A DNA stretch of 64,000 nucleotides from the NCBI GenBank assembly GCA_964443405.1, contig CAYUDB010000001.1:2752-66751 (forward strand). Reading direction: 5' to 3'. This document shows positions 23,911 through 38,695 of the stretch, one piece after another. Made by a program: the position numbers and the translations under genes. The first letter of the stretch is position 1, and each line of letters begins with the position of its first letter. The DNA is from an uncultured bacterium. Its GTDB lineage: Bacteria; UBP14; UBA6098; B30-G16. Under the pieces are notes generated by a model. It was not told where the DNA came from, did no database searches, and saw only the letters and a list, made by a program, of their open reading frames with translations.

Positions 23911-26253
23911 ATGAGAAAATTTAGCGTTGTCATCGCCGCAATTGCAACGTTTTGCGCAGTTTGCGCAGCCCAAAGCCTCGTAAAAATCCCGTATTCTGCC
24001 AAAGATAAACTCGATTTCACAACACTCGATATAGCATTCACGCGTGCGGGCGCGTATTTTTTGGCTGTGGCGGATGACGCAACGGTTACTAGATTTGCAC
24101 AACAGCATATTCCATATGAAGTTATTCACGAAAACCTACCAGAATTCTATGTTTCACGTTTTGCTCCAGTTGACTATGGTGGTTATCACACATATGCACA
24201 GATAATCGCTGCAATCGATTCTATGCAAATGCTCTATCCAGAAATTATTTCTCAAAAATTTTCGATTGGTACAACAACACAGGGACGCGATATCTGGGCT
24301 ATAAAAATCTCCGATAATCCCACTTACGATGAAGATGAGCCAGAAGTTTTGTTCGATTTCAACATTCACGCGCGCGAGGTAATTGGTTTTGAGCTATCAC
24401 TTTACTTCTTGAGCTGGCTTTGCGACAACTACGGCACAGATCCGCTTGCGCGATTTATCGTTGATGAACGTGAGGTATTTATGGTTCCGGTGCTCAACCC
24501 CGACGGCGTTTTGATAAATGAAGCACTCTACCCTTCTGGCGGGGGCACATGGAGAAAAAACACACGTGATAACAACGCTTCCGGTGCTTTCGAAATCGCT
24601 TCGGATGGCGTTGATCTCAACAGGAATTTTGGTTACATGTGGGGTGTCGGCGGCTCATCAAGCACACCTAGCGACGACACCTACATGGGTCCCTCAGATT
24701 TTTCCGAGCCGGAGACACGCGCTATACGCGATTTTTGTGCGGCACATGAAATTCGATTTTACATGAACGTGCACAGCTTTTCCAACTACTATCTTTTCCC
24801 ATGGGGTTACACAGCCGACCACTGCGCCGATTATGATTATTTCATGCTGATAACCGATTGGATGGCAAGCAGAAATGGCTATGTACACGGCGATGCTTTC
24901 ACAACCATCTACATGGTTTCGGGTGGCAGTTTCGACTGGAGTTATGGCGAAGAAAGCATTTATGGTCTTTCACCCGAAATAGGTGGCGAAGAAGACGGTT
25001 TTTGGCCCTCAACCGATCGCATTATTCCACTATGTGAAGAAAACCTGCTCGCTTGCATAGTGCATTGTCTGGTGGCAGGTTATGCGCCACGCGCAATGAG
25101 CGCCACCGTAAGCGAGATTAGCGGTGATGGCGACGGTTGTTGCGACGTGGGCGAAAGCGCAAACATCGACGTATCGCTCATAAACTTAGGTTTGGATGCG
25201 GCAAGTGGGGTTACAGTGCTCGCACGTGCTATAACTCCCGGCATAATTTTCATTGAGAGCCTAAAAACTGTGTCCGCGCCAATTGCGCCAAAGGGCGGTG
25301 TCGCAACAGTTTCGAATTTTATCTGTCGTCTGGCACCACCGCTTTTACCGGGCAGCACAGCCAGAGTCGAATTCACCGTTCGCACAGCTGAGGGTTATTC
25401 CATGCCCGACACACTGTCATTTTTGGTAGGCACTCCCCTAACTGTAACTAGCGTTACTTACGACGCAGGTTCGGCAGGATGGACACTTTCGGGCGACTGG
25501 CAAATAGGCGCATCCGAACGACCACTGCCGCACAGCGCACCTGCAATTTTAGCCACGCGCCTCAACGAAACCTATTCGAATAACCGCCTTTCCGAGGCGA
25601 TAAGCCCTATTTTTTACATTCCTACCGAAGGTTTTGCGCCCGAACTGACTTTTTGGCAGCTACTCGCAATCGAAGGCAGTGCGGCTCTTGTTTACGACGG
25701 CGGAAACGTAAAAATACGCCGACGTGGCGAAACTTCTTGGCGCATTATTTTTCCTGATGGTGGATATACAGGCACTTGTTATACATCAAACCCACATATT
25801 GGCGGCGAGCCGGCTTTTTCAGGAAACACGTACGAATGGGTGTTTACACGCTTTCCGCTTGATGATTTTGTTGGCGACAGTGTGCAGTTCAAATTCGTTT
25901 TCGGCACCGATCTTTACGTAGGCTATGAAGGTTGGCACATCGACGACTTATCCATTCGTGCCTATGAACCAGAGACAACGGCAAACATCGACGAAATTGT
26001 AGCGCGCCCAACATCTTTGAATATTCACATATCGCCAAACCCATTCAACTCCATATGCCACATATCATTTGCACCAATTGCGCGCGCAAGAAAGCTGCAA
26101 ATATTCGACATTCACGGGAAAATTGTTGCAACACAAACAGTTCCATCGAATTCAACCCACATTGCCTTCGATGGCGCGAATATAAACTCGGGGCTCTATC
26201 TCGTCACTTTTGAGGGCGAAACTAACTGCACAAAATTGATTTTACTCGAATAA
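23911..26253 (+). CDS. Zinc carboxypeptidase (peptidase M14) with T9SS C-terminal sorting domain
   Basis: Signal peptide MRKFSVVIAAIATFCAVCAA. M14 motifs (NIHAREVIG, DLNRNFGYMW, NVHSFSNYYLFPWGY). The C-terminus (ISPNPFNSICHISF...LQIFDIHGKIVATQ...NSGLYLVTFEGET...LILLE) is a T9SS CTD. Confidence 0.85.
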   Translation: MRKFSVVIAAIATFCAVCAAQSLVKIPYSAKDKLDFTTLDIAFTRAGAYFLAVADDATVTRFAQQHIPYEVIHENLPEFYVSRFAPVDYGGYHTYAQIIAAIDSMQMLYPEIISQKFSIGTTTQGRDIWAIKISDNPTYDEDEPEVLFDFNIHAREVIGFELSLYFLSWLCDNYGTDPLARFIVDEREVFMVPVLNPDGVLINEALYPSGGGTWRKNTRDNNASGAFEIASDGVDLNRNFGYMWGVGGSSSTPSDDTYMGPSDFSEPETRAIRDFCAAHEIRFYMNVHSFSNYYLFPWGYTADHCADYDYFMLITDWMASRNGYVHGDAFTTIYMVSGGSFDWSYGEESIYGLSPEIGGEEDGFWPSTDRIIPLCEENLLACIVHCLVAGYAPRAMSATVSEISGDGDGCCDVGESANIDVSLINLGLDAASGVTVLARAITPGIIFIESLKTVSAPIAPKGGVATVSNFICRLAPPLLPGSTARVEFTVRTAEGYSMPDTLSFLVGTPLTVTSVTYDAGSAGWTLSGDWQIGASERPLPHSAPAILATRLNETYSNNRLSEAISPIFYIPTEGFAPELTFWQLLAIEGSAALVYDGGNVKIRRRGETSWRIIFPDGGYTGTCYTSNPHIGGEPAFSGNTYEWVFTRFPLDDFVGDSVQFKFVFGTDLYVGYEGWHIDDLSIRAYEPETTANIDEIVARPTSLNIHISPNPFNSICHISFAPIARARKLQIFDIHGKIVATQTVPSNSTHIAFDGANINSGLYLVTFEGETNCTKLILLE

Positions 26254-26302: not shown

Positions 26303-27541
26303 ATGAAAAGCATGTTTGAAGGCAAAAAAATCTTGTTGGGTGTATGTGGTTCTGTTGCTGCGTACAAGGCAATTGTGCTTGGGCGTGCACTGGAGAAATC
26401 TGGTGCAACAGTTCGTGTTGCGCTCACTGCCAACGCTGCAAAATTCGTAACTCCATTGCAATTTCGATCAGCACTACGTTGTGAAGTAACTGTAGATGAG
26501 TTTTCACAGCCAAACGAATGGAGCCTCGAGCACATATCATGGGCACGCTGGGCAGACACTTATCTCATCGCACCTGCAACTGCAAATGTGATAGGCAAAT
26601 GCGCCAACGGCATCGCCGACGACTTTGTCACAACCACGGCACTTGCTGCCACCTGCCCTGTTATTTTTGTGCCGGCGATGAACACCGTCATGTTCACACA
26701 CGCGACTGTGCAGCGTAACATCTTACAGCTCAAAAAATTCGGCTATCACGTGATGGAAACTGCCACAGGCGAGCTAGCTTGTGGCGAATTTGGTGCCGGG
26801 CGTTTTCCCGATATTCCTCACATTATCGATTACGTATTGCCGTTTTTTCATGTTTCCGACGCGTTTCGCAATGCACATGTGCTTATAACCGCTGGTCCAA
26901 CACACGAATACATCGATGACGTGCGTTTTTTGTCAAATGCTTCTACAGGGAAAATGGGCTTAGCCTTAGCACGCGCTTTTCTGACTTTCGGCGCTAAGGT
27001 TACTCTCGTAACCGGTCCCATCACCGAAACCATCCCGTTCGGAGCACGCGAAATTCGTGTTGTCTCTGCTGCAGAAATGTTCGAAGCCACCATACAAGAA
27101 TTTGCCAACTGCAACTTAGCTATTATGGCTGCTGCTGTCGCTGATTATACTCCTAAATTGAGAACGCAGGGAAAAATTAAGAAAAACTCCGACACATTAA
27201 CCCTCGAGTTTGCAAGAACTCGCGACATACTCGCCGAGCTTGGCAAAATCAAGGGCAAACAGCTACTAATTGGTTTTGCGCTCGAAAGCTCGAACGTGGA
27301 ACTCTATGCCCGTGAAAAACTTGCATCCAAAAACCTCGACGCTATCGTGGCAAACTCGCCATCGCCATGCACCGGTTTTGGCGCCGCCACAAATGCCGGC
27401 ACACTCTTTTTTCGTGATGGCACGCAAGTCAATTTGCCGCTCGAGAGTAAGCAGGAAATGGCTTTTCGCATTGCCAGCCTTTTAGCAGCGATTGCGCCAC
27501 CTGCTCAAAATGATTCTGAAGCAGCTTCGCCTACAAGATAA
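26303..27541 (+). CDS. coaBC: Bifunctional phosphopantothenoylcysteine decarboxylase / phosphopantothenate-cysteine ligase
   Basis: N-terminal flavoprotein half (KKILLGVCGSVAAYKAIVLGRALEKSGATVRVALTANAAKFVTPLQF) and CoaB ligase half (HVLITAGPTHEYIDDVRFLSNASTGKMGLALA...IMAAAVADY), 412 aa in total. Confidence 0.9.
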   Translation: MKSMFEGKKILLGVCGSVAAYKAIVLGRALEKSGATVRVALTANAAKFVTPLQFRSALRCEVTVDEFSQPNEWSLEHISWARWADTYLIAPATANVIGKCANGIADDFVTTTALAATCPVIFVPAMNTVMFTHATVQRNILQLKKFGYHVMETATGELACGEFGAGRFPDIPHIIDYVLPFFHVSDAFRNAHVLITAGPTHEYIDDVRFLSNASTGKMGLALARAFLTFGAKVTLVTGPITETIPFGAREIRVVSAAEMFEATIQEFANCNLAIMAAAVADYTPKLRTQGKIKKNSDTLTLEFARTRDILAELGKIKGKQLLIGFALESSNVELYAREKLASKNLDAIVANSPSPCTGFGAATNAGTLFFRDGTQVNLPLESKQEMAFRIASLLAAIAPPAQNDSEAASPTR

Positions 27542-27747
27542 TTATTTCAACACCAATAACTAATATTACGCAGTAGCAGTTTTAAAAATCGCTATCATGT
27601 GTGTTATTTTTGAATTTCTGAAAATATGTACTAATCACCAAATTCAACAGTTACGTCAAAGTGCGTACCCTTTTGTAAAGCACGCTAATACAAGAAATTT
27701 TGTCATGTAGCATTCCATTTTCAACGATGCTGCATGCCAAGCAAAAC

Positions 27748-27786
27748 CTTCCACAACAAAAACCACCAAACTCTCGCTTGGTGGTT
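27748..27786 (-). terminator. Rho-independent terminator for the SPFH gene (stem AACCACCAAGCG/…GTTTGGTGGTT followed by TTTTTGTTG on the minus strand). It also lies downstream of the convergent coaBC gene.
   Basis: Hairpin and T-run seen directly in the convergent intergenic region 27542-27831. Confidence 0.6.
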
Positions 27787-27831
27787 CTTCGTAAAATTTT
27801 GGCAGACGACAAACATCGCCGCAAATGCTTG

Positions 27832-28752
27832 CTAATCAACCTTTTTGATGACATTAGTGAGCGCTGCGATGGTGCCGGCAATGTCCGATAGGTTTGACGG
27901 TATAATCATGGTATTGTTGGACTTGGCAAGGTGTCCGAATTGCATGATCCACTGCTCGGCAATGCGCAAGTTGACAGCCTCTTTGCCGTTAGTAGAGCCG
28001 ATAGCGTTTGCAATTTCGCGAATACCAGCGGCGGTGGCAACTGCAACAAGCTCAATCTCTTTCGAGCGACCAGTTGCCTCGTTGATACGTTTTTGCATTT
28101 CGCCTTCCGAAACAAGTGTCATTTCTTGGCGATCGCCTTCGGCGCGGTTAATTTTGGACTGACGTTCCCCTTCGGATAACGCTATTTGCGCGCGCTTTTC
28201 GCGTTCGGCACGCATTTGCTTTTCCATAGCTTCTTGCACAGAAGTGGGCGGCGTGATGTTGCGGATTTCGTAACGGGTTACCTTGATGCCCCATGGATCT
28301 GAAGCCTTATCCACAGCATCTACGACATTGCCGTTGATGGATTCGCGCTCGACGAAGGTTTTGTCCAAATCGAGCTTACCGATTTCGGAACGCATGGTGG
28401 TCATTGCAATTTGCGTTACGGCAAAAACGTAATTGCTTATGCCATAAACCGCTTTTACAGGATCCATCACGCGCATGTACAAAATGCCGTCCACCTCGAC
28501 CGAAACATTGTCTTTGGTGATGCAGATTTGCGGCGGCACGTCTATAGCCATTTCCTTTAGGCTCACTTTGTAGGCAACTTTGTCGATGAACGGGATGAGA
28601 ATGTGAAAACCCGCATCGAGTGTTTTTGAATATTTGCCCAAAGTTTCGACAATGTAAGCACTTTTCTGTGGAACAATACGTGCAGTTTTAAATAACGTTA
28701 TCAGCACAAAAAAAATGCCGATAATAATGATCCAAACAATCGCAGCTTCCAT
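27832..28752 (-). CDS. SPFH/band-7 (stomatin/prohibitin-like) membrane protein
   Basis: RBS GGGGAGGA. N-terminal TM helix followed by the band-7 core (IVPQKSAYIVETLGKY...GFHILIPFIDKVAYKVSLKE...ITKDNVSVEVDGILYMRV) and a coiled-coil tail. Confidence 0.88.
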   Translation of the reverse strand: MEAAIVWIIIIGIFFVLITLFKTARIVPQKSAYIVETLGKYSKTLDAGFHILIPFIDKVAYKVSLKEMAIDVPPQICITKDNVSVEVDGILYMRVMDPVKAVYGISNYVFAVTQIAMTTMRSEIGKLDLDKTFVERESINGNVVDAVDKASDPWGIKVTRYEIRNITPPTSVQEAMEKQMRAEREKRAQIALSEGERQSKINRAEGDRQEMTLVSEGEMQKRINEATGRSKEIELVAVATAAGIREIANAIGSTNGKEAVNLRIAEQWIMQFGHLAKSNNTMIIPSNLSDIAGTIAALTNVIKKVD

Positions 28753-28834
28753 GATCCTCCCCTTGGAATTTGTTGATAACTAAGTTTTTTTAAATTTAAC
28801 GGTCACGTTTTGGAACGTACTTTTTGATGGACAA

Positions 28835-29299
28835 TTAATTGCCATTATTTTTGTCAATTGGCTTTACAAAAAACGTGATGTTCTTTTTGCCTACAATCTC
28901 GACAATTTCGCCACGCTCGATTTCGACATCGGCAATGGCTTTCCAATCGGTGCCGTCAAATTCGATTTTACCTTCGTCGCTTTGAGGCACGATTTTCTTT
29001 GAAACTTTCACGCGTTTGCCCAAAAATTCAGCCGAATCGCCCACTTTTTCTTCGCTGTCGAGCTTTCCTTTGAGGTATTTCGAAAAAACTCTGCGCAGCG
29101 AAAACAGCAATATCAAAGAGCCTACTGCAAAAAATAACAGCTGCACTTCTATTGATGGTAGCACGCCAATCCAAGTGAGCAGCGCCGTTATAACCGCTCC
29201 CATGCCGAAAAAGATTAGAATTATGCCGGGCACCACAAATTCCAGAAACATGAGCACTAATCCCGCCACCAGCCACGCGAGTTCAGGGCTAAGGCACAT
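28835..29299 (-). CDS. NfeD-family membrane protein (short form, C-terminal OB-fold), partner of the SPFH protein
   Basis: Internal ATG at 29299 with GGAGG RBS. Two TM helices followed by an OB-fold-like tail (GKRVKVSKKIVPQSDEGKIEFDGTDWKAIADVEIERGEIVEIVGKKNITFFVKP). The NfeD-SPFH gene pairing is classic. Confidence 0.75.
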   Translation of the reverse strand: MCLSPELAWLVAGLVLMFLEFVVPGIILIFFGMGAVITALLTWIGVLPSIEVQLLFFAVGSLILLFSLRRVFSKYLKGKLDSEEKVGDSAEFLGKRVKVSKKIVPQSDEGKIEFDGTDWKAIADVEIERGEIVEIVGKKNITFFVKPIDKNNGN

Positions 29300-29516
29300 C
29301 GCAAAACCTCCGAGTTTGTTCTTCACAAAATATACACTTATTCGCATAAAAAATTCATTTTTTTTTGTTTCCAGCCAAATGCTAAACACCTAGAGTGGTT
29401 TTCAAAATTGCCTGCCTGTGCCGATAAAAATCCCCGCCTTGCAGCACTTCTTCTTAGGCAAGAAAGAAGCACAATGCAAGACGGGGAACATTTGTCAGCG
29501 GTCAGTTAGCTGATTT

Positions 29517-30152
29517 TTAGTTGAACATCTGCATGCCAAAGGCGTCTTTGAGCAAGAAAATTATGCGACCGATGAAAAGCGACAGTCGCGCCATAACTGT
29601 ATAGCCAAACGTTGCGCCAAAACCTATCATCAAAAACCAAATGCCAACGCTCGCCACACCACCAAACCAACCTTTGTGTTCCTTTGAAAAGAAGAAATAC
29701 ACCAAGCCCGAAAGCACTCCCACAACAATAATTAGATTGTAGAAAATGCCTTCGACTGTGAAGGAAACAGGCAACATTGTGGCATAAAGCTGCTGCATTA
29801 TTCCAGTTTGGATAACACGAGGCAGCGCATAACCCGAAGATGCACCAATGAGCAAGGCAAGGCTGTATCGCGAAAGCCATGCGTATTTTGGCACAATACG
29901 GGTTATCATAAGCAATCCCATAAGGGCTGGTATCACAAGATGCAAAGTGGACGGGAAATTCGCGACAAACGGCTCCCAAAATTTTCCCACAACAGTGAGC
30001 GTCCACCAGAGAACAATGCCGTAACCCATGCCGATGCCAACGGTAACCGATTCGGCAAATTTATAGAAAATGTTGTCCTTCCACAGAAACGAAAAGACCG
30101 AGAGGGTGAAGAAAACTGCCACCCAAACCCAAGGGTCGGTACTCGGATGCAT
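29517..30152 (-). CDS. Polytopic membrane protein of unknown function (211 aa, ~6 TM)
   Basis: RBS CACGGAGG. The protein is entirely hydrophobic helices (WVWVAVFFTLSVFSFLW..., IVLWWTLTVVGKFW..., IIVVGVLSGLVYFFF...). No recognisable motif. Confidence 0.55.
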   Translation of the reverse strand: MHPSTDPWVWVAVFFTLSVFSFLWKDNIFYKFAESVTVGIGMGYGIVLWWTLTVVGKFWEPFVANFPSTLHLVIPALMGLLMITRIVPKYAWLSRYSLALLIGASSGYALPRVIQTGIMQQLYATMLPVSFTVEGIFYNLIIVVGVLSGLVYFFFSKEHKGWFGGVASVGIWFLMIGFGATFGYTVMARLSLFIGRIIFLLKDAFGMQMFN

Positions 30153-30175
30153 ATTTTAACCTCCGTGCTTGCGGT

Positions 30176-30994
30176 TTACTTTTTCTTGGACATGAAATAG
30201 CCCAAGTTACCCAAAACAATAAATAGTATTATAGCAATGTGCGCCCATGACTGCGCTTCCATGCCTGCCATGCCTACAGCCGGTCTGTTGACGAGCTGCT
30301 CGTATTCGGCAGCGCCACGCAAACCACCAAGTATGCCAATAAGCTGACCCGCTTGCATATTCGGGTAAGCATCGGCAGCCATGACAGCTGTAATGCCCGC
30401 AGCAATTTTAACTTTGTACTGCGCATAGGCAAACACAATCCACGAAGCATATGCACTGCTGCCCGTAAGACAAACTATCAGGTCGATGTCGTCGTAGTTT
30501 TTGAGCTCGCGGGTGAGCGGTAAATCGCGAAGCTTGGTTTGGTAAAAATCGGATTGCCAAGCGCCTATGAAGTTTTTGCCCATCTGCATGACGAGCAAGC
30601 TCGCGCCGTATTTCCAGCCAAGGAAAACATAATCGACGCCATAGACTTTTTGATACTCGTCGGCAATGCGCTTTAGACGGGGTTCTACCAAACCTGTGCC
30701 CTGCAAGTTGAAAACATTTGCCACCACGACTTTCACGTTTTTTTGAAAGCAATGATGCAAAATTGCCTCATACATGGGCGAAAGTTCGGCGTCCACCTGT
30801 GGGTCGTAATCGCCGGAGATGAAAACAATGTCGGTCGGTTTGAGTTTATCGATATAGTTGTATATTGCGCTAACTTCGGGCGAAGGCTTGATCGGTAGCC
30901 CGAGCCTGAAGAAGAACGGTAACACCACCGCAATTGTGATGATGGCGTAAATTATACGCCTGTCGAGTTTTTCTAGTTTTTGCCAAAAATTCAT
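30176..30994 (-). CDS. Bitopic membrane-anchored protein of unknown function (272 aa; N- and C-terminal TM helices flank a ~220-aa soluble domain)
   Basis: RBS AAGGAG. TM helices near both termini (IIYAIITIAVVLPFFF; HIAIILFIVLGNLGYF). No recognisable motif. Confidence 0.55.
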   Translation of the reverse strand: MNFWQKLEKLDRRIIYAIITIAVVLPFFFRLGLPIKPSPEVSAIYNYIDKLKPTDIVFISGDYDPQVDAELSPMYEAILHHCFQKNVKVVVANVFNLQGTGLVEPRLKRIADEYQKVYGVDYVFLGWKYGASLLVMQMGKNFIGAWQSDFYQTKLRDLPLTRELKNYDDIDLIVCLTGSSAYASWIVFAYAQYKVKIAAGITAVMAADAYPNMQAGQLIGILGGLRGAAEYEQLVNRPAVGMAGMEAQSWAHIAIILFIVLGNLGYFMSKKK

Positions 30995-31018
30995 GGTTTG
31001 CTCCTTGGTAAGTTAGGC

Positions 31019-31669
31019 TCAGTCGCCACCGAGATAAGACCTTTCGATACCCAAAATGATCTTCAAGCTCACCAAAAGCGAGCCTAAACCCACGCCCAAA
31101 GCGATGGCGCGTTTTGCCGCCATGTTTGGAACGTTTAAAATCCATTGCGACACATCGTAGAACGTGATGTTGATGCCAAAATGTGTCCAAAAGCTAAGTG
31201 GCTCGCCAATGGGCACGCGCCCTAACATAACGATGATGGCGGCAATGAGCAATGCCACAGCTTGCATAGAGCGCGCGCGGAAAGCTCTGTATGCTGCCGA
31301 CGAAATGTAGAACGCGAGTAACGCAAAAACGGTGGCGTTCACCGCAACAGATACGTAAGTGAACAAATTCATGAACATACCAGCACTTGTGCCGTCGAAA
31401 ATTGCCGAAACTATCATAGCGAGAAGTGCAAGTAAGTTGATAGCCGAAAAATACCAGTCGTGCGAACGCTTGATGACTTTGTAGATGTGCACGCGCAAAA
31501 AGCTAAAATAGCCAAGCACGGCACCAAAGATTCCTATAGTTATAACCCAGTTGATATAGAAATCGTTCAGGAATATGTCGGAAGCCCTATGGGGTGCAAA
31601 ATATTGGAACCCCAAAAGGATACCCATCACGAGAACTATAAGCAAAGGTAGTGTTTTTTTCCAAAACAT
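31019..31669 (-). CDS. Polytopic membrane protein of unknown function (217 aa)
   Basis: Internal ATG at 31669 (MFWKKTLPLLIVLVMGILLGF) with AAGGGGG RBS, 12 nt after the stop of the upstream gene. About 6 predicted TM helices. Confidence 0.55.
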   Translation of the reverse strand: MFWKKTLPLLIVLVMGILLGFQYFAPHRASDIFLNDFYINWVITIGIFGAVLGYFSFLRVHIYKVIKRSHDWYFSAINLLALLAMIVSAIFDGTSAGMFMNLFTYVSVAVNATVFALLAFYISSAAYRAFRARSMQAVALLIAAIIVMLGRVPIGEPLSFWTHFGINITFYDVSQWILNVPNMAAKRAIALGVGLGSLLVSLKIILGIERSYLGGD

Positions 31670-31680
31670 CGGTGCCCCCT

Positions 31681-34455
31681 TTATTCGCCAAGAGATTGGA
31701 AGATGTTCACGAGCCACCATGCACCAGCCGAAGCCGCAGCTGTGCCAATTACGATGATGACCATTTCGATAGCTTTGAGCACATCCTGCGATTTGAGTGA
31801 GCCACGCTGCATTGGGTCATTGGACATGTATGCGGAAGCTGCGTAAAGCTCTTCGCCTATGAGCGTGTAATCGCAAGCGGTGATGAAAAATGGCAGTTGA
31901 GTCATGTCGTCTGTGCCCGCAACCTGAATGGCTCCGGTAGATGCACCTGTTTCTGCCAAGATTAGTGATTCGGCATAGAACTTACCTACGAAGAAGTTGG
32001 CGGCGGTTTTCTCGCGAATCATCAAACCAGCCACTGCTGCTGCATAGGCAAATTGTTGTGCTGCAAAGTAATAGATATCGTCTTCGCGATAAAGATCGGG
32101 TCTGCCCGCATCGGTGTATGCGTTGCGAACAGTTTCTTGTGCCACAATCATGATGATAGGATCGTAGCAAGGCACCAAAAGCCTGTTTTGATATTGTGCC
32201 GATTTTTTCGCTACACGTCCCAAAATAGTGAGCGATGCGAGAGTAGCTATCTCTTCGATGTAGCCCAAGCCAGTAACGTAAACAATGGGACGACCCATTT
32301 CGGTAGCTCTGCCCAATGCCTCGTCGATGTGCACAATACCCGCAATTGGGCGAATGAAAAACTGCGAGCCTTTTCTCGCCAAAAGTATGAAAAACAAAGC
32401 CACCGCAACAAATATAAAAGTGGCAATAAGCAAGTTTACTTTGTGCGTGTTGAACCAGTTGCTCTGAGGCACCACGGGACCAAGTGGTTCGGTTTGTGCC
32501 ACAGCACCATCGGGACCGACAACCTGCACAATGTAATAGTAGTCTTTTTTGTGCGGTGGATTGCGGAAAATGCGGAGCAAGCTTTTATCTGTTGTGTCGG
32601 GTTCAAACTGGTCGATTATTTGGCGGTTGTCGAAACTGCCATCGGCAAAAAGCTCAAATGTCGAAAGATCGTTTTTGTCGGTGCCACGATAGAATAAATA
32701 GGTGTATTCAGAAGATGGTGCATCGACTATGTGGATTTTTGTGGCATCGATTTCCATGTCGATTACAGCTTCGGGATTGTTGAAGCTTCCGCCGTTTGAG
32801 CGGATAATTTTGCCCGTGAGCCTGTATTTGCCTTCGGGCACATCGTCAAATTTGAAAGAAAAAGTGTTGTCTTTGTCGAGAATTTCTGCGGGCTCGGGCA
32901 AACCAAGTGTGAAATCACCGTAAAGTGCGTCGTCTTCGCTGTTTGTGAGCATGTTGTATTCGATTTTGAGCGTCCTTTTATCGCCAACGGTGGTGTAGGC
33001 ATAGGTGGAGATCTTTTGTGCGCCCTCGGGTTTTGCTGCGCCCGGTTCGAGTTTTATAATCTGTTCACTCGTATCAGTTTTAACATAATAAAGGTTTTGC
33101 GCGCTCACGTCTTCGATTTTGGGTGTAGGCGCCGCATCTTCGACAGAATAGGCAACTGTGAGTGCTGGCGGTCCCCATCTGAGGAGAAGTTTTGTGCCAT
33201 CGTCGTTGGGAAAATCTTCGGCAACGATGTCGGCAATGGGAACAACACCAAGTGGTGCGGGCACAGATTGCAAAAGTGTGGTTTTTGTAGATTGCCCTGC
33301 TTTATCGACATTTTCGATGTAAAATCTGTCGGCACCTTTTACATCTTTTATCGCGAAAAACATCCAAGACGCATTGATTTCGCCTACTGGTGTGCCTTCT
33401 TTGCATGATGTGTCTTTGGCTGTGGTTTTGAAAATGCGATATTTGGCATTGTCGAAAAACTGTGCATATCTTTGCGCTGCAGGGTCGAAATTGAAATGAA
33501 TGGCAGCGGTGTTTGATGTCGTGTCGAAAAGCACCATCGATGCAACCGGTGCAAAAGGCGGTTCATCTTTTGTGATTATTTCGACAGGAGCAGATTCGTC
33601 AAAGATTTTTGCCGTAGTGAAAAGGTTTTGTGCTGCGGGCTTGTTTTTTTGGTAAAGGCGAATTGTGTAGGTATATTTTTTCCCTGGTGCTGCACTGCGG
33701 TCAACAAACGAAAAATCGCTGGCTTGCATAGTGTAACGTGCTTTAGTGGTGACCACTGATGCTATTTTTTTGCCATATTTTGCCAAAAATGCGCTCTCTA
33801 CACCGTCTGCGGTGGAGATGAAGCTACCCTTTTTTACAAATTCAAATTCAGCATCTTTCGCCGAAACTTCAAGACCAATTTTGCCGTTTTGTGGCACTGT
33901 GAAGCCACATTTTGCAAAGAGCTCGGGCATAACATTGACTGGTTGAAGTTTTTCGGCTATGCGCATGTCGGGGACAACTTGATAATAAAGTCCATCGACA
34001 AAAACATTAGGAAGCGCATTGACGCTCTCTTGTGGTGGAATTTGGAACTCGATGCGCACGAGTTGTTCGGCACCGTGCGACATGAGCGATTCGGCATTTT
34101 CCACAGTAGGCTTTGTGACAATAAGCTTGGGCAAGCCGGCACACGACGAATCGATAGAGACAAGATAGCCCAAATTTTTTACGTCGTTGTCGGTGGTGTT
34201 TTCCCAAACCGTGTTCACCTTTTTCATCTGCAGAGGAGTTATGAGAACTGGCGCACCACCTTCCTCGGTGCGGTAGATCTCATATAAAATCCCGGGCACG
34301 GTTTCAAAGTGTTTCCACTTTATGACGACATTTGTGCCATCATCGCCCGGGATGTCTGTAAGTTGTGGGTTTTGCGGTTTAGGAGCTGCAATTGCCGCCA
34401 TGGCGCACGACAAAAGCAACGACAGAACGGCAAAGGATACGTACGTTCGCCTCAT
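31681..34455 (-). CDS. Large membrane protein of unknown function (924 aa): signal peptide, ~660-aa extracytoplasmic domain, TM helix, ~210-aa domain, C-terminal TM helix
   Basis: RBS ATAGGAGGAC. N-terminus MRRTYVSFAVLSLLLSCAMAAIAAP. TM helix at about aa 690 (VNLLIATFIFVAVALFFILLARK) and a terminal hydrophobic segment (VIIVIGTAAASAGAWWLVNIF). No recognisable catalytic motif. It is the first gene of a tightly packed cluster, 34455 down to 27832, containing only membrane proteins. Confidence 0.6.
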   Translation of the reverse strand: MRRTYVSFAVLSLLLSCAMAAIAAPKPQNPQLTDIPGDDGTNVVIKWKHFETVPGILYEIYRTEEGGAPVLITPLQMKKVNTVWENTTDNDVKNLGYLVSIDSSCAGLPKLIVTKPTVENAESLMSHGAEQLVRIEFQIPPQESVNALPNVFVDGLYYQVVPDMRIAEKLQPVNVMPELFAKCGFTVPQNGKIGLEVSAKDAEFEFVKKGSFISTADGVESAFLAKYGKKIASVVTTKARYTMQASDFSFVDRSAAPGKKYTYTIRLYQKNKPAAQNLFTTAKIFDESAPVEIITKDEPPFAPVASMVLFDTTSNTAAIHFNFDPAAQRYAQFFDNAKYRIFKTTAKDTSCKEGTPVGEINASWMFFAIKDVKGADRFYIENVDKAGQSTKTTLLQSVPAPLGVVPIADIVAEDFPNDDGTKLLLRWGPPALTVAYSVEDAAPTPKIEDVSAQNLYYVKTDTSEQIIKLEPGAAKPEGAQKISTYAYTTVGDKRTLKIEYNMLTNSEDDALYGDFTLGLPEPAEILDKDNTFSFKFDDVPEGKYRLTGKIIRSNGGSFNNPEAVIDMEIDATKIHIVDAPSSEYTYLFYRGTDKNDLSTFELFADGSFDNRQIIDQFEPDTTDKSLLRIFRNPPHKKDYYYIVQVVGPDGAVAQTEPLGPVVPQSNWFNTHKVNLLIATFIFVAVALFFILLARKGSQFFIRPIAGIVHIDEALGRATEMGRPIVYVTGLGYIEEIATLASLTILGRVAKKSAQYQNRLLVPCYDPIIMIVAQETVRNAYTDAGRPDLYREDDIYYFAAQQFAYAAAVAGLMIREKTAANFFVGKFYAESLILAETGASTGAIQVAGTDDMTQLPFFITACDYTLIGEELYAASAYMSNDPMQRGSLKSQDVLKAIEMVIIVIGTAAASAGAWWLVNIFQSLGE

Positions 34456-34506
34456 CAGTCCTCCTATTTTTTTAAATTGTTATACTGAATGCAATCATTT
34501 TTGCAT

Positions 34507-34553
34507 CAAAAAAAGCACCGCCAAAACCATTTCTTTAGGCTGTGTGGCGGTGC
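34507..34553 (-). terminator. Rho-independent terminator of the 34566-35684 gene (stem GCACCGCCA…TGGCGGTGC followed by T8 on the minus strand)
   Basis: 9-bp stem with a T-run seen directly. It separates the upstream gene from the membrane-protein operon promoter. Confidence 0.6.
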
Positions 34554-34565
34554 ATTTTTACAAAA

Positions 34566-35684
34566 TCATTCTTCGATCATTTCGAGGTTGGCGCGTGGCA
34601 CCATAACCTTTTCGCCATCGAGAAATTCTATTTCGCAAACGCGAGCATGTGTTTCCGATTCGAGTGCGCGCAGTTCGGGCGGTAAACCTGCGATTTTGCC
34701 AATTTTGCCAAAATATGGCACGCGAATAACACGAACGAGCGATCCTATTTCGATGCCCTTAAGCTCGCTTTTTGTAACATTTTCGGCTTCGATGTTCTGT
34801 TGGATTATGACTTCGGGACGGATGACACCAGCACGTATTTGGGTGGCACCATTTATCGAGGCTTCGCAGTCATTGTATTTTTTGAGCATTTCGAAGGTTT
34901 TTTTTGCCATAGGGATATTGCCAAATCCCTCGGTAACCAAAACAGTGAGCGGTATATCCTCAGAACCGGTAATGGCAACACCGATGTCGTAACCGAGATA
35001 TTCGGCAACATCTTGTGCATCGATGCCACCTGCAACTATGCCGCGCACGTTGAGTTGCTGGGCTTTGCGAATTGCAGCAGCGGTGATTCTTCCGCCACCT
35101 ATGATGATTTTATCGTGGCAACTGTCGTCAATTTGGGCTGCATCTAAAATTTCGTCACACGAACGCGAGACGATGTGAATTTTGCCCGTGCGTTCGCCGC
35201 CAATGCCGAAAATTCCCTGCACAAATGTGGCGACTGTCTCGACAACCACGCCCTCTTTTTCGATTATTTCTACAACTTTGCCGGGAATATAAGCCTTAAC
35301 TTCGATGGGTATTGGCTCGGCATTGAGAACAGCTTGTCCTGTAACGCGCGATACTTCTTTCAGGGTACCTGAGAAAGGTGCTTTAATTTGGGTTTTGAAA
35401 AGCCCAAAGAAACCTTTGTTCTCTGCTAAAATTTGTCCTACGTCGAAATGTTCACCCTGTTTGACCTTAAGAAACATTTCTGCATCAGCAGCATCGATGC
35501 CAAGCAAACCGGCTATGTTCAAAAGCTCCACCGAGCCAGGCAAAAACGCGCGCGCAACAGTGTCATTGGGTTTCACTGCATCACCTTTTTTGACAACCAC
35601 TTCACCCTTGAGAGGCAATATACGCCTTTTCGAGACAAGTTCGCGTTCGGTTACTTTAAGCCCGGGTATATATACGTGCCCCAT
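34566..35684 (-). CDS. Hypothetical soluble protein, possibly of the GGGtGRT family
   Basis: ATG at 35684 with strong AAGGAGAGAAGC RBS; the ORF-track start at 35714 is a TTG. Contains GIFGIGGERTGKIHIV, reminiscent of the GGGtGRT-family name motif. Otherwise unrecognised. Confidence 0.4.
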   Translation of the reverse strand: MGHVYIPGLKVTERELVSKRRILPLKGEVVVKKGDAVKPNDTVARAFLPGSVELLNIAGLLGIDAADAEMFLKVKQGEHFDVGQILAENKGFFGLFKTQIKAPFSGTLKEVSRVTGQAVLNAEPIPIEVKAYIPGKVVEIIEKEGVVVETVATFVQGIFGIGGERTGKIHIVSRSCDEILDAAQIDDSCHDKIIIGGGRITAAAIRKAQQLNVRGIVAGGIDAQDVAEYLGYDIGVAITGSEDIPLTVLVTEGFGNIPMAKKTFEMLKKYNDCEASINGATQIRAGVIRPEVIIQQNIEAENVTKSELKGIEIGSLVRVIRVPYFGKIGKIAGLPPELRALESETHARVCEIEFLDGEKVMVPRANLEMIEE

Positions 35685-35842
35685 GCTTCTCTCCTTGTGA
35701 ATATTGTATTTCAATAAAGCAAGTTTTGCTCATAGCACAAGCATTTTGTTAGTGGCGTCGGCACAAGTGGGTGCCTTTCTAAGCTGCTACGCCACGCAAC
35801 TTGAGTAGAAATCTGTTTTATTAGCAGATGCTACCTCTCAAT

Positions 35843-35871
35843 AAAAAAACCACCAAACTTTTGTTTGGTGG
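35843..35871 (-). terminator. Rho-independent terminator of pmbA/tldE (stem CCACCAAAC/GTTTGGTGG, T7 on the minus strand)
   Basis: Hairpin and A7 on the plus strand (T7 on the minus strand), about 90 nt downstream of the 35959 stop. Confidence 0.65.
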
Positions 35872-35958
35872 CATCAGTGAATATTTTTGCAAACGGCTTA
35901 GTCGTCCACTTTGAACAAAAACTTTTTGTAAACCAGTGGGTGCCGTCTCTGAAATAAA

Positions 35959-37269
35959 TCATTCGGAAATGACGGAGATGTTGTCGAAGCGCATATATGG
36001 GAAACAGTAAACGCCATAAAGCCATTCGCGATCGGAGCTTATTGCCGAAATATCGCGCAGACAATCGTAAACATTGCCAGAAATAGCAACATTTTTCACT
36101 CTACCGACAATTTTCCCGCCTTCGATTTTGTAAGCGCTCCCCACAGGGTTTGAGAAGGCGCCCGAAAGGACATTGCCTTGTCCCATGCCGAGCACCGATT
36201 CAATCAAAATGCCCTCGTCGATGCTCGCGATTATGTCTTGGGAAGGTTGTGTGCCCGGCTCTATAAGCACATTGCTCGAAGATGGGGAGACCGGTCCGAA
36301 AAGCGAGCGCGTGCCACAACCATTGCTGGTATAACCGCTTTTTTTGGCAGTAGTCAAGTCGAAATAGAAGGCAGACAAGACGCCATTTTCTATCATGGTT
36401 TGGCGACGTTTGAGTGTGCCTTCTGCGTCGAAAGGTGCGCTGCCTGCACGAAATGCAAGTGTTGGATCGTCGATAAGCGAGAATTTTTCGTCGAAGAGAG
36501 TTTGCCCAAGTTTGTCGAATATGGGGCTAGATTTTGTGTATATGCTCGACCCGTTCAAGCCGATGGAAAGTGGGTAGAGTATCACAGGTACAGCGCGAGG
36601 AGTAAAAATAATCGGGCAATTTCCAGTGGGTGGTGCGACGATGCGGTCGGCAAATGACATGGCGTTTTTGATGCGCGCTTCAATAGGTGCGACAAAAGCA
36701 TCAACGCTTGTGGGTGACGCTGTTGCTGTGTTGTAATCCCATGTCATGTAAATGTCGCCCTCGCGAACTCGCGTTACACTCCCCGAAAGCGATATAGATG
36801 ATTTCGAAAATTCCGCATCAAAGCCTTCGGTGTTCGTTATGCGAAAATGTGCCGCCGAACTTCCACAGCCAAATTCGCCGTCGCAATCGGTTTTGAATTC
36901 TAAAAGCGAATTTTTTGCTTTTTCGGCAATAGCCGCAAGGTCGGGTATGGTAACCGATTCAAGTTGAGCATCAAAGATTTGAGGCATGCGCATGTCGGCT
37001 GGCTTTGAAGGAAAGGTCAAATCGAGTTTTTCGCCGAGTTTTGCCGCAGAAATAGCATTTTCGACCATGTCGTCGAGTCTGTCGGCATCAGATGTGGCAC
37101 AGAAGCCGAGTTTGCCGTCGATGATGACGCGCAAAGCCCAACCGCGCTCGTTTGTGCTCTCAGTGCCGCGTATTTTCCAGCCTTTAAACTCCACCGAACG
37201 CGACGAACTTTCGGTAAAAAACAGTTCGGCGCTGTCCACACGACCTTTCACTTTGGCAAGTATATCCAT
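35959..37269 (-). CDS. pmbA: PmbA/TldE metalloprotease-family protein (the TldD partner, which lacks the HExxxH motif)
   Basis: ATG at 37269 with AAGGAGGATTCG RBS. TldD/PmbA family fold. It lies immediately downstream of tldD. Confidence 0.8.
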   Translation of the reverse strand: MDILAKVKGRVDSAELFFTESSSRSVEFKGWKIRGTESTNERGWALRVIIDGKLGFCATSDADRLDDMVENAISAAKLGEKLDLTFPSKPADMRMPQIFDAQLESVTIPDLAAIAEKAKNSLLEFKTDCDGEFGCGSSAAHFRITNTEGFDAEFSKSSISLSGSVTRVREGDIYMTWDYNTATASPTSVDAFVAPIEARIKNAMSFADRIVAPPTGNCPIIFTPRAVPVILYPLSIGLNGSSIYTKSSPIFDKLGQTLFDEKFSLIDDPTLAFRAGSAPFDAEGTLKRRQTMIENGVLSAFYFDLTTAKKSGYTSNGCGTRSLFGPVSPSSSNVLIEPGTQPSQDIIASIDEGILIESVLGMGQGNVLSGAFSNPVGSAYKIEGGKIVGRVKNVAISGNVYDCLRDISAISSDREWLYGVYCFPYMRFDNISVISE

Positions 37270-37312
37270 CGAATCCTCCTTATTTTGCGAAAACATTGTT
37301 GTGAAAAGGCAA

Positions 37313-38695
37313 TTATTCCTTGCCGCCTACTTTTACGTTGTGGATGCGAATGTGAGGTGCGCCAACGTCAACTGGTGCTGCCTGACCGCCTTTGCCACAG
37401 TTGCCGCCCCATTTTGCCCAAGAGAAGTCGGTGCCCACTGCGTCGATGTTTTCGAGCGTTTGGAACAAATTGCCCTGAAGCACGACATCACGCACAAGTT
37501 CGCCGGGTTTGCCATCTTCGATAATGTAAGCCGCGCCAGCCGAAAAAGAGAAGTTTTCAAGCTGCGTTTGACCACCGTAAGCATCGGTGCAATAGAGACC
37601 ATTTTTCACTTCGGCAAACATTTTTTTCACATCGTGCGGTCCTGCCTCGATGGCAGTGTTGGTCATGCGCACAATGGGTTCGTTGCGATAGCTTTGGGCA
37701 CGCGCATTACCTGTGGGTTGTTCGCCGAGCTTGGCTGCTGTCTCGCGATTGTGCAGACGACCTGCGAGCACGCCTTCGCGAATGAGATATGTTTTGTGCG
37801 CAACAATGCCTTCGTCATCGTAATGGATGGTGCCGTGAAGGTCGGGTTGTATTGTGCCATCATCGATGACATTGAGAAAATCTTTGCCGAAAACGCGACC
37901 CAAATTCATCATTTGCTGTGCTTGCGGGTTCTCGAGGATGAAATCGGATTCGGAGAGATGTCCAAAGGCTTCGTGGATGAAAACACCTGCAAGCTTTGGA
38001 TCGAGGACAACGGTGTATGTGCCACCTGTAACACTTTTTGCTGAAAGTAGGCGAAGCGCCATTTCGGCAGTTTCGCGTGCCTGAGCTTGTCTTTGTGCAA
38101 AATCAGAAAATCTGTGCTTGGTGCTCCAACCTTGCGTCCAAGCTTGTGTGTCCGAGCCTCTGCGTGCACGTGCAGCACAATAGAGAACACCATCGCGCAC
38201 AACATGTTCGATGCGTCCGCCGAAAGTGTTTGCAAAAAATTTCTCATTGCACCAATCGGCGTAATTGTTGATGGCAAGTATGATCTCTTCGCCGGTAGAT
38301 TTCATGATTTCATTGTATTCGCGGCAGAGAGCGATTTTAGTTTCGGCAGAATGGCTGTCGAAGGGGTCGATCATTTTTGTCTCGACATGCGTTTCGATTG
38401 GGTCTGACTCGGCAATGCGAATCGGCTCATCGGGTATGATTATCCGTGAGCTGTCGCAGGCATCGGCGAAAGCTTTTGGCAACGATGCGTAATCGTTGAA
38501 AGTGGCTATGCCCCAACCGTGGTTGTGCAGGAGCACACGAACAAAACCGCCTGCATCGTTTTTGCGCGAAAAGTTTTCGACTATGCCGTTTTTCACCACG
38601 AAAGATAGAGCGCTAGCCCTTTCGAGGCGAATTTCCGCGTAGCCTCCAACATTTTTCAGCAGGCTTTCGATTGTGTCGCGGTAGTTTTCGAACAT
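37313..38695 (-). CDS. tldD: TldD metalloprotease
   Basis: RBS CAGGGAGGCAAA. HEAFGH zinc-binding motif and the C-terminal glycine-rich tail typical of TldD. Confidence 0.88.
   Translation of the reverse strand: MFENYRDTIESLLKNVGGYAEIRLERASALSFVVKNGIVENFSRKNDAGGFVRVLLHNHGWGIATFNDYASLPKAFADACDSSRIIIPDEPIRIAESDPIETHVETKMIDPFDSHSAETKIALCREYNEIMKSTGEEIILAINNYADWCNEKFFANTFGGRIEHVVRDGVLYCAARARRGSDTQAWTQGWSTKHRFSDFAQRQAQARETAEMALRLLSAKSVTGGTYTVVLDPKLAGVFIHEAFGHLSESDFILENPQAQQMMNLGRVFGKDFLNVIDDGTIQPDLHGTIHYDDEGIVAHKTYLIREGVLAGRLHNRETAAKLGEQPTGNARAQSYRNEPIVRMTNTAIEAGPHDVKKMFAEVKNGLYCTDAYGGQTQLENFSFSAGAAYIIEDGKPGELVRDVVLQGNLFQTLENIDAVGTDFSWAKWGGNCGKGGQAAPVDVGAPHIRIHNVKVGGKE

Follow-up and report, generated by a model that had tools for sequence, protein, structure and literature searches.

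A DUF6754 protein and three conserved membrane proteins as a probable self-contained inner-membrane module, encoded beside a separate NfeD/SPFH operon

Two units in the interval

The window, i.e., the whole stretch of 64,000 nucleotides analysed here, most probably carries one copy of a self-contained, uncharacterised inner-membrane module that is widespread in the FCB group, the PVC group and candidate phyla, and the interval at 27832-34455 was best read as parts of two independent units, gene A with B-C-D-E and an NfeD/SPFH pair, rather than as one six-gene unit; we put the probability of either statement at roughly 85%. Unit 1 would extend from 35684 to 29517 and be closed by the terminator at 29487-29423, and unit 2 would be an ordinary NfeD/stomatin operon, located downstream of the module by happenstance in this genome only. 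The features are as follows.

34566..35684, minus strand: gene A, cytoplasmic, ~372 aa (the mechanical ORF extends to TTG 35714)
34508..34553, minus strand: hairpin followed by U7 between A and B, dG -25 kcal/mol, z -3.9
34460..34465, minus strand: AGGAGG ribosome-binding site (RBS) of B, read directly from the sequence
31681..34455, minus strand: gene B, 924-aa ORF
31705..32466, minus strand: DUF6754 part of B (aa 664-917; PF20539, E 8e-112)
31019..31672, minus strand: gene C, 217 aa, cysteine-free, ~6 predicted TM helices with both termini inside
30176..30994, minus strand: gene D, 272 aa; Rossmann-like alpha/beta domain flanked by two TM helices
29517..30152, minus strand: gene E, 211 aa, ~6 predicted TM helices, no cysteine
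29423..29487, minus strand: terminator after E, a long GC-rich hairpin and then AUUUUUAU
28835..29299, minus strand: NfeD, short form of ~154 aa (PF01957, E 7e-10); ATG 29299 preceded by the RBS GGAGG (GTG 29389 in the mechanical ORF)
27832..28752, minus strand: SPFH/stomatin-like protein, 306 aa (Band_7, E 6e-39; Band_7_C, E 9e-23)
27755..27788, minus strand: terminator hairpin after the SPFH gene, seen in the sequence (fold z -4.6)

The preliminary description had presented a six-gene cluster beginning at B and possibly organised by the stomatin-like protein. The six minus-strand ORFs (924, 217, 272 and 211 aa, NfeD and SPFH) were all present in the ORF list at the positions and sizes it gave, although the 217-aa one becomes 233 aa when counted from its first ATG; the RBS was found 5 bases before ATG 34455, the terminator that it placed upstream of B corresponds to the hairpin and U7 listed above, and profile matches confirmed NfeD and SPFH. 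The gaps, given there as 12-83 nt, were measured as 8, 24 and 23 nt between the genes from B to E and 82 nt between the NfeD and SPFH genes, and the distance from E to NfeD is 127 nt if the GTG start is used but more probably 217 nt, to ATG 29299. The A/B hairpin resembles a terminator and might act as an attenuator. The terminator after E had a predicted folding energy of -44.4 versus -23.3 +/- 3.2 kcal/mol in shuffled sequences (z -6.6), and 0 of 200 shuffles were as stable. As judged from this terminator, the separate RBS and the terminator after the SPFH gene, NfeD/SPFH appears to be its own transcription unit.

SPFH/NfeD pairs are in general regarded as organisers of membrane partners, and this background, together with the adjacency of the genes on the same strand in the window, is what speaks for a stomatin-like protein that scaffolds or quality-controls a complex of the four membrane proteins. 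Against it, the pair adjoined the module in none of 82 loci scored by BLAST and was absent from the gene tables of nine further loci, including the closest relative, at 79% identity, and the strong terminator, the 217-nt spacer and the RBS of NfeD intervene between E and the pair. The scaffold proposal of the preliminary description is therefore unsupported and very improbable, and on sequence grounds nothing argues that the stomatin-like protein touches the module.

Conservation of the B-C-D-E module

The gene order B-C-D-E was retained in every complete locus among the 91 examined (the 82 scored by BLAST plus the nine read from gene tables), and at least 89 loci, in genomes or metagenomes that cover many bacterial phyla, carried the module; among the lineages were Zixibacteria, Ignavibacteria, WOR-3, Cloacimonadota, Eisenbacteria, Poribacteria and anammox Planctomycetes. 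In the BLAST set, B was detected in 82/82, C in 80/82, D in 76/82 and E in 75/82 loci, on a single strand and always in this order; the missing C, D or E genes mostly fell at cut contig ends, and two loci (L026 and L079) had B alone on longer flanks. The same picture was obtained for the nine further loci, the 79%-identity relative included. The grouping of genes B to E is far beyond chance, and that with NfeD/SPFH is not; conserved synteny in relatives, by which the preliminary description was itself to be judged, was kept for the B-C-D-E order and absent for the NfeD/SPFH pair. What stands of the proposed cluster is a conserved, undescribed set of four membrane-protein genes, of which the pair (0/91 loci) is not a member.

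The B domain was encoded in at least 595 species-level genomes, and at least 8000 and 2444 matching protein clusters were found for B and D, respectively. At least 25 loci had two or three modules in tandem, with stops that overlap the next starts, and the array positions fall into separate clades, which points to an old triplication. The neighbouring genes varied between lineages, and no regulator gene was a conserved neighbour among the loci examined. Genes of central or fermentative metabolism were often nearby, such as those for PPDK, ETF, an aminotransferase with 2-oxoacid:ferredoxin oxidoreductase, and ADP-forming acyl-CoA synthetase.

Gene A as the recurrent partner

The preliminary description began the cluster at B; the minus-strand gene just upstream, however, accompanies B-C-D-E in all of the seven closest relatives. 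This gene, A, was the immediate upstream neighbour of B in 18 of 54 informative loci, with a spacing of 0-175 nt in relatives and, in one locus (L085), a stop overlapping the start of B. Its start was assigned to ATG 35684, where the family alignment (A5; 84 invariant columns) opens with MxHxYxPG. The protein begins with a barrel-sandwich hybrid domain of RnfC_N/NqrA_N type, which is followed by a conserved central region and ends in a KOW-like C-terminus; its match to RnfC_N was just above the cut-off (E 9.5e-6, 26.0 bits versus 25.6), and an RnfC_N or Biotin_lipoyl match was obtained for 13 of 20 family members.

A PF13941 gene immediately preceded A in 14 of 19 loci, and fusions of MutL to A, 995 and 1003 aa long, were found on many contigs. 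In P0260 and P0346, A is fused to a PF13941 MutL-like ASKHA protein. A and the MutL-like gene were not adjacent to the module in two thirds of the loci, and the window contains no MutL-like gene. A is the module's real recurrent partner, linked elsewhere to a MutL/GlmL-type ASKHA ATPase by adjacency and fusion.

The DUF6754 protein B

The profile searches proposed in the preliminary description assigned B to DUF6754, a family of unknown function, and returned no match for C, D and E. Its statement that none of the four shows a recognisable catalytic or transport motif agrees with the searches, in which no such family was recognised, but B, counted there among the unknown proteins, does match a profile. 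C, D and E had no family in Pfam, NCBIfam or PADLOC and no match among PDB sequences.

The signal peptide, the huge ectodomain (here ~650 aa) and the two TM helices earlier described for B were all recovered. The protein comprises the signal peptide, an FN3-like ectodomain (~aa 24-665, with FN3-like segments at aa 22-69, 386-430 and 605-673), a TM helix at ~672-693, the Rossmann-like DUF6754 domain, predicted to be cytoplasmic from positive-inside charge counts, and a C-terminal TM helix at ~895-918. The structure prediction that had been suggested for B gave an AF2 model (pLDDT 88.2) with a six-stranded parallel alpha/beta domain between the two TM helices. Within the module this domain is the best conserved, with 53-64% identity across phyla versus 32-50% for C, D and E, and 47 invariant columns were counted in an alignment of 117 sequences. 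A G-x-G-T-A...A loop follows strand 1, an acidic residue follows strand 2, and the invariant residues line the C-terminal edge of the sheet; the folds nearest to the domain are SIS, eIF2B-like, KTN and GT-B half domains, and it may bind a phosphorylated or nucleotide-type ligand.

The ectodomain is highly variable in length, from absent in a 259-aa form to full proteins of ~1011 aa, and the cytoplasmic domain is constant. Such a pattern would suit a transmembrane receptor whose FN3 ectodomain senses an extracellular or periplasmic cue and whose cytoplasmic domain relays it to A and the ASKHA protein, and paralogous arrays could provide different specificities. We nevertheless consider signalling highly unlikely: no known output domain was recognised, no regulator belongs to the conserved neighbours, and a sensor would not usually have three more obligatory membrane subunits in strict stoichiometric coupling.

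Proteins D, C and E

D had been described as bitopic, which was not the case, as one TM helix is present at either end. Its AlphaFold model (pLDDT 91.0) placed a Rossmann-like domain between the two helices. One TM helix carries an invariant His and Asn, and the N-terminal tail, predicted to be cytoplasmic, carries an invariant D-R-R. A periplasmic location of the D domain is predicted from charge counts alone (5.7 versus 3.5 K+R), the flanking charges giving B and D opposite orientations. In hhalign, B and D were colinear end to end (P 0.0099) at a probability of 4%, which falls short of establishing homology, and we infer that they may be distant paralogues inserted in opposite orientation; this arrangement would place one alpha/beta ligand-binding domain on either membrane face.

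The best Foldseek matches of the B and D models were generic only, i.e., SIS, eIF2B, RCK and Moco-carrier folds. Another reading is an envelope-biogenesis enzyme and translocase, in which the B and D domains would act like the halves of a split GT-B glycosyltransferase (as in Alg13/Alg14) or like SIS-type sugar-phosphate-binding modules. A lipid-linked or polymeric product would then be flipped or exported by C and E and handled outside by the FN3 ectodomain. We regard that reading as unlikely.

C and E probably constitute the membrane core. The topology of C was derived from charge counts, and E has the invariant residues N26, E33 and R188 (alignment A4). The two proteins are not paralogues of each other, neither contained an internal repeat, and conserved charged residues were few within the TM helices of the module.

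Proposed function

Our best guess, in which we have little confidence, is that the module forms a membrane complex that translocates a ligand. A small ligand would pass from one binding domain to the other by way of the C/E core, and the variable FN3 ectodomain of B would extend into the periplasm. A would dock on the cytoplasmic face and, where the ASKHA ATPase is present, couple the module to it. The paralogous modules of an array would each serve a different ligand or join in a hetero-oligomer. The scarcity of conserved charged residues inside the TM helices and the lack of internal repeats in C and E argue against transport, and none of the module proteins resembles a component of a known transporter. 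The explanation as a whole, in which the organisation and the transport function are taken together, is favoured by a small margin over its being wrong.

The B domain is far more conserved than C, D and E, as would be expected of a catalytic or energy-converting core rather than of an accessory domain of a transporter. An Rnf/Nqr-like ion-motive pump or motor would have A as a peripheral SBHM subunit, C and E as ~210-aa six-TM subunits, B and D as TM-anchored soluble domains, a catalytic site for nucleotides in the cytoplasmic domain of B, and the A/ASKHA pair as supplier or consumer of energy. Consistent with this are the RnfC_N/NqrA_N domain of A, the extreme conservation of B and A, subunit numbers and sizes like those generally known for NqrA-E, the invariant residues in the TM helix of D (His and Asn) and in E (E33 and R188), and the frequent metabolic neighbours. 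Conversely, none of 92 C and E sequences matched the Rnf-Nqr family, C and E are not mutual paralogues and, as encoded in this genome, lack cysteine, an FMN_bind domain and Fe-S motifs are absent, D is Rossmann-like rather than NqrC-like, and the neighbours differ by lineage. We consider this machine doubtful, and less probable than the ligand-translocating complex.

Comparison with known systems

Genes 5 and 6 of the interval are regular members of the NfeD-SPFH (stomatin/YbbK-YbbJ type) operons, with the C-terminal OB domain of NfeD and Band_7 plus Band_7_C; as a unit of their own, they were unlinked to B-E in every relative.

Na+-NQR/Rnf operons (NqrA-F, RnfCDGEAB) encode two ~210-aa six-TM proteins together with TM-anchored soluble-domain subunits. 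The module shares with them the barrel-sandwich domain in A and such a multi-subunit constitution, but has no Rnf-Nqr, FMN_bind, NQR2_RnfD or Fe-S family matches, its cysteine-free C and E are not homologous, and its gene order is different. By this analogy, the module seems to resemble Nqr/Rnf in overall plan only.

In PilM-PilN and FtsA-type pairings, a membrane protein has a short conserved cytoplasmic tail to which an ASKHA-fold protein docks. The PF13941 protein encoded with or fused to A and the D-R-R tail of D would recall this arrangement, although PF13941 belongs to the hydantoinase/GlmL branch rather than to actin/PilM, and no pilus or divisome genes were linked to the module among the loci examined.

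The generic Rossmann-like ligand-binding domains compared (SIS, eIF2B-like, KTN/RCK, GT-B half and MTH777, PDB 1kjn) share 4-15% sequence identity, and searches of Pfam and of PDB sequences gave no match. Folds of this group are not known to be clamped between N- and C-terminal TM helices as the B and D domains are.

For DUF6754 (PF20539) itself, our literature search found no paper mentioning the domain, and the Pfam entry covers one domain alone, the obligatory partners C, D and E being without any family entry. Its members are typically ~400 aa, with FN3, a TM helix and DUF6754, and commonly bear the annotation "fibronectin type III domain-containing protein"; B of the window is a full-length, high-scoring member over aa 664-917, distinguished from them by an ectodomain enlarged to ~650 aa.

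Gene content and boundaries of the locus

The preliminary description placed six minus-strand ORFs in one cluster opening with the gene termed B here, and all six were found at their positions, as were the AGGAGG ahead of B and the upstream hairpin with its U7 tract. The features of the locus are listed below; B, C, D and E denote the first four genes, and A the gene directly upstream.

Genes and signals at the locus (window positions)
27832-28752, minus strand: SPFH (stomatin-like, Band_7) gene (ORF, Pfam)
28835-29389, minus strand: NfeD gene, with a better start at ATG 29299 having GGAGG upstream (ORF, Pfam)
29423-29487: predicted terminator between E and NfeD, a long GC-rich hairpin then AUUUUUAU (sequence, fold)
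29517-30152, minus strand: E, 211 aa (ORF)
30176-30994, minus strand: D, 272 aa (ORF)
31019-31672, minus strand: C, 217 aa, or 233 aa with an earlier ATG (ORF)
31681-34455, minus strand: B, 924 aa (ORF)
34508-34553: terminator-like hairpin with U7 between A and B (sequence, fold)
34566-35684, minus strand: A, the next minus-strand gene upstream of B

The NfeD-SPFH pair was likewise present: NfeD matched PF01957 (39.4 bits against a cut-off of 29.1), the SPFH protein matched PF01145 (Band_7, 134 bits) and PF16200 (Band_7_C, 80.6 bits), all above the gathering scores, and the neighbouring genes are co-oriented with 82 nt between them. The gaps, described as 12-83 nt throughout, proved longer between E and NfeD, where the spacer is 127 nt, or 217 nt counted from the better NfeD start. 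The hairpin lying in this spacer was predicted to fold at -44.4 kcal/mol, as against -23.3 ± 3.2 kcal/mol in shuffled sequences (z -6.6), and is followed by a U-run; with a GGAGG of NfeD's own, these signals argue against a single transcription unit running from B to the SPFH gene.

At the other end, the cluster does not start at B as had been supposed, because A belongs with B-E. A PmbA/TldD metallopeptidase pair (35959-38695, minus strand) lies upstream of A, and since a clean hairpin terminator (35849-35872, 10-bp stem and T-run) separates the two, A appears to open a new transcription unit. Expression of A may differ in level from that of B-E, given the terminator-like hairpin that separates A from B. 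A mechanical ORF call for A starts at TTG 35714 (382 aa), a form absent from the protein collection; the family alignment starts at ATG 35684 (MGHVYIPG..., 372 aa). Neither paralogues of A-E elsewhere in the window nor Rfam elements within 27000-36500 were found.

Several other genes of the window were also recorded. An ORF of 759 aa (16073-18352, minus strand), without a Pfam match, sits directly 3' of a SusC-like TonB-dependent receptor (18378-21911, minus strand; CarboxypepD_reg, Plug and barrel domains), in the place expected of a SusD-like partner. Two secreted peptidases, an M14 carboxypeptidase and an M4-like enzyme (23911-26253 and 40376-43276, both plus strand), bear C-terminal sorting domains for type IX secretion, which fits an FCB-group host. 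A GAF and HD (HD-GYP-type) protein (38892-40091, plus strand) is divergent from TldD, with no evident link to the cluster.

Distribution and gene order

Only eight relatives of full-length B reach 48-54% identity or better, the window's own protein among them, while its C-terminal 269 residues match at least 8000 protein clusters at 55-64% identity; the usual protein among these is of about 400 aa, with an FN3 domain, a TM helix and DUF6754. When one genome per species was scanned, the B domain proved to be encoded in at least 595 species-level genomes. The best 80 of these loci, taken with 8-kb flanks, come from Zixibacteria, Ignavibacteria, WOR-3, Eisenbacteria, Cloacimonadota, Poribacteria, Brocadiales (Scalindua, Anammoxibacter), Edwardsbacteria, Stahlbacteria, Sabulitectum, CSSED10-310 and one Desulfuromonadaceae. 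DUF6754 was absent from 72,556 plasmids.

When the window proteins were compared by BLAST with all ORFs from 82 loci, B was matched in 82/82, C in 80/82, D in 76/82, E in 75/82 and A in 19/82, and contig ends account for most of the loci without a C, D or E match. The order B-C-D-E was constant and all matches lay on the same strand, so that the first four genes are indeed a strongly conserved set; nine further loci with gene tables (L083-L091) gave the same picture. In the closest relatives (L086, with D 79% identical, L087/L088 and L001-L004) the order is A-B-C-D-E, followed by an ORF with no Pfam match and/or an aminotransferase.

The NfeD and SPFH genes behaved otherwise. Each was matched in 0/82 loci, the L083-L091 tables list neither Band_7 nor NfeD genes, and in the closest relatives the pair never follows the module. 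The preliminary description, which had proposed a stomatin-like scaffold organising a four-protein complex, counted a lack of conserved synteny in relatives against its own reading, and this lack is what was found for NfeD/SPFH. Although the pair itself is real, such a scaffold is thus highly improbable. We conclude that the locus holds two units, namely A with BCDE, and a separate standard NfeD/stomatin operon with its own ribosome-binding site and terminator.

Tandem arrays of two or three complete modules occur in at least 25 loci, 16 of which have three, and stop/start overlaps are frequent in these arrays, even from module to module. The modules gathered in this analysis number more than 100. 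Three-module arrays of 12 genes were recorded at L007, L012, L018, L021-L023, L032, L035, L036, L039, L042, L049, L052, L057, L060, L070, L083 and L090. When B was placed in a neighbour-joining tree, the sequences from Zixibacteria and Ignavibacteria grouped by their position in the array (1, 2 or 3), each position being a clade of its own, which suggests that these arrays go back to an ancient triplication; those of WOR-3 look like separate, more recent duplications.

The other conserved neighbours were all lineage-specific and none was general: in Zixibacteria/Ignavibacteria, pyruvate phosphate dikinase (PPDK) with a 104-115-aa ORF, and elsewhere ETF, an aminotransferase accompanied by IOR-like genes, PMT_2 and penicillin amidase. 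An ORF of 104-120 aa, without a Pfam match, and then PPDK follow the last module at L083 (14000-17386) and L090 (13957-17366), and the same pair stands at about 10 further Zixibacteria/Ignavibacteria loci, being kept in these lineages only.

Sequence and structure of B, C, D and E

The first four proteins had been described as showing no recognisable catalytic or transport motif. C, D and E gave no match in Pfam, NCBIfam, PADLOC or the sequences of the PDB, and their families (45-46 diverse members each) showed no consistent Pfam family; B, in contrast, carries a full-length DUF6754 domain (PF20539; E 8e-112; 373 bits, cut-off 27; positions 2-255 of the 257-position profile). PDB sequence profiles matched B only to FN3 (titin), at the typical B N-terminus. 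The ectodomain of the window's B is an enlarged version of the usual single FN3, with FN3-like segments at residues 22-69, 386-430 and 605-673 and large inserts between them.

AlphaFold2 models of B residues 640-924 (pLDDT 88.2) and of D (pLDDT 91.0) share one plan, in which a Rossmann-like alpha/beta domain of six parallel strands stands between a first TM helix and a long C-terminal one. D, previously regarded as bitopic, accordingly has one TM helix at either end. In hhalign, B and D aligned colinearly from TM1 to TM2 with a P value of 0.0099 but a probability of only 4%, which is no significant homology; a common origin of the two is regarded as probable. Foldseek returned no match under E 0.011; the best were Moco-carrier, eIF2B-like, RCK and SIS folds, and such model-based matches are generic.

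The flanking Lys and Arg residues of B (5.6 inside against 1.4 outside) place its domain in the cytoplasm, in agreement with the signal peptide, the FN3 ectodomain and the existence of a 259-aa form without any ectodomain. For D the corresponding values (5.7 against 3.5) indicate a periplasmic domain, less decisively than for B. Invariant residues of B gather at the C-terminal ends of the strands; among them are CYD after strand 2, AES, GTD, GEE and, following strand 1, a loop rich in Gly (family consensus GLGTAxDIAT). Such a pattern is typical of sites for nucleotides or phospho-ligands, and B would have a putative site of this kind.

C has six predicted TM helices with both ends inside, and the window copies of C and E contain no cysteine. 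Profile-profile comparison revealed no significant homology between C and E (probability 1%), nor between the N- and C-terminal halves of either protein, with no internal repeats. Permease matches among the 46 C sequences were scattered and sub-threshold (FtsX in 2/46, ABC2_membrane_3 in 1/46).

Gene A and its link to a MutL-like protein

In 18 of the 54 loci in which that region is visible, and in 7/7 close relatives, A lies directly 5' of the first B, and at L085 its stop overlaps the B start. An alignment of 20 A sequences contains 84 invariant columns. An RnfC_N/NqrA_N-type barrel-sandwich domain was detected at 26.0 bits (cut-off 25.6), with RnfC_N matched by 13/20 family members, and the C-terminus bears a KOW-like tail; some JGI records call A homologues 'transcription antitermination factor NusG', a name probably due only to this tail. 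Against PDB sequence profiles, A yielded two leads, a weak one to RraA (residues 166-238, E 0.037) and a slightly better one to GGGP synthase 4jej (residues 183-224, E 0.0065).

Upstream of A in 14/19 loci stands a gene for an ASKHA-fold protein of about 600 aa (PF13941, 'MutL/GlmL', hydantoinase branch), often with one or two small membrane ORFs beside it; the window holds no such gene. Among 1.84 billion representative proteins, 2476 A relatives were found, including the MutL-A fusions P0260 (995 aa) and P0346 (1003 aa), each on several independent contigs, with the PF13941 part N-terminal and the A-like part C-terminal. The existence of these fusions provides a Rosetta-stone link between A and the MutL-like protein. 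One fusion is labelled 'glutamate mutase L' in Ozemobacteraceae. In a Planctomycetes MAG, the MutL-like gene is separated from A by a 1150-aa ORF without a Pfam match (L084, 3337-6789), and ETF beta and alpha genes come after the module.

Proposed function and significance

Taken together, A and BCDE are regarded as a self-contained inner-membrane complex. Our leading proposal for its function is a transporter-like complex, to which we assign a probability of roughly 0.25-0.3. C and E would form the membrane core, and B and D an inverted pair offering one ligand-binding alpha/beta domain at each membrane face; A, with the ASKHA ATPase where present, would work at the cytoplasmic face, and the FN3 ectodomain would touch periplasmic or envelope material. 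Array paralogues might differ in specificity or assemble into hetero-oligomers.

A and the cytoplasmic domain of B are far more conserved than the membrane subunits, a pattern better fitting a catalytic or energy-converting core. It is the chief argument against a transporter, and an ion-motive machine on an Rnf/Nqr-like plan stands as the second hypothesis, itself unlikely. A role in envelope biogenesis of the split GT-B or SIS-like kind is rather unlikely, and a receptor role very unlikely.

Beyond the transporter-like proposal, we consider with a little under even odds that B-C-D-E, with A and the MutL/GlmL-type ASKHA ATPase as cytoplasmic partners, represents a new class of inner-membrane machine rather than a remote branch of a known transporter, respiratory or secretion family. 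It would be present in hundreds of FCB-group, PVC and candidate-phylum species, combining two inverted TM-Rossmann-TM subunits with two unrelated six-TM proteins, and, after an old triplication, its arrays may form hetero-oligomers. A remote kinship of its proteins to a known fold may nonetheless exist. The literature searched held no paper on DUF6754, PF20539, PF13941 or this gene set, and nothing relevant on GlmL/MutL/ASKHA, Zixibacteria with FN3, or RnfC with barrel-sandwich; the four-gene module appears undescribed, as do its arrays and its connection with A and the MutL-like protein. DUF6754 is already a Pfam entry; for the other three obligatory proteins, C, D and E, none of the libraries searched has a family.

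A module found in at least 595 species-level genomes, with a core domain 53-64% identical across phyla and two or three copies common, shows the conservation that usually marks a central cellular machine. Since its carriers are mostly uncultured lineages important in sediments, bioreactors and sponges (Zixibacteria, Cloacimonadota, WOR-3, Poribacteria, anammox bacteria), metabolic and envelope models of these groups have a real gap here. The present analysis provides a correctly bounded unit for expression (A and BCDE, NfeD/SPFH left out), a defined soluble domain of B (about residues 700-890) for ligand screens and a testable link to the MutL-like ATPase.

Comparison with known systems

The searches made here assigned the module, its arrays and its link to A and the MutL-like protein to no known kind of system. 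An ABC or ABC-2/GldFG-type transporter was rejected, as none of the locus tables shows an ABC_tran gene within or next to the module, and so was a known anti-phage defence system, as PADLOC models matched none of the seven proteins at E <= 0.01. Membership of the Rnf/Na+-NQR group was also rejected. Neither PF02508 (E <= 0.1, 46 C and 46 E sequences) nor FMN_bind (NqrC/RnfG) or NqrB/RnfD Pfam matches were obtained, and the window's C and E are not paralogous (hhalign 1%) and lack Fe-S-binding cysteines. What the module does share with Rnf and Na+-NQR is the RnfC_N/NqrA_N barrel-sandwich domain, here carried by A, while D is Rossmann-like and B follows an FN3-TM-Rossmann-TM plan.
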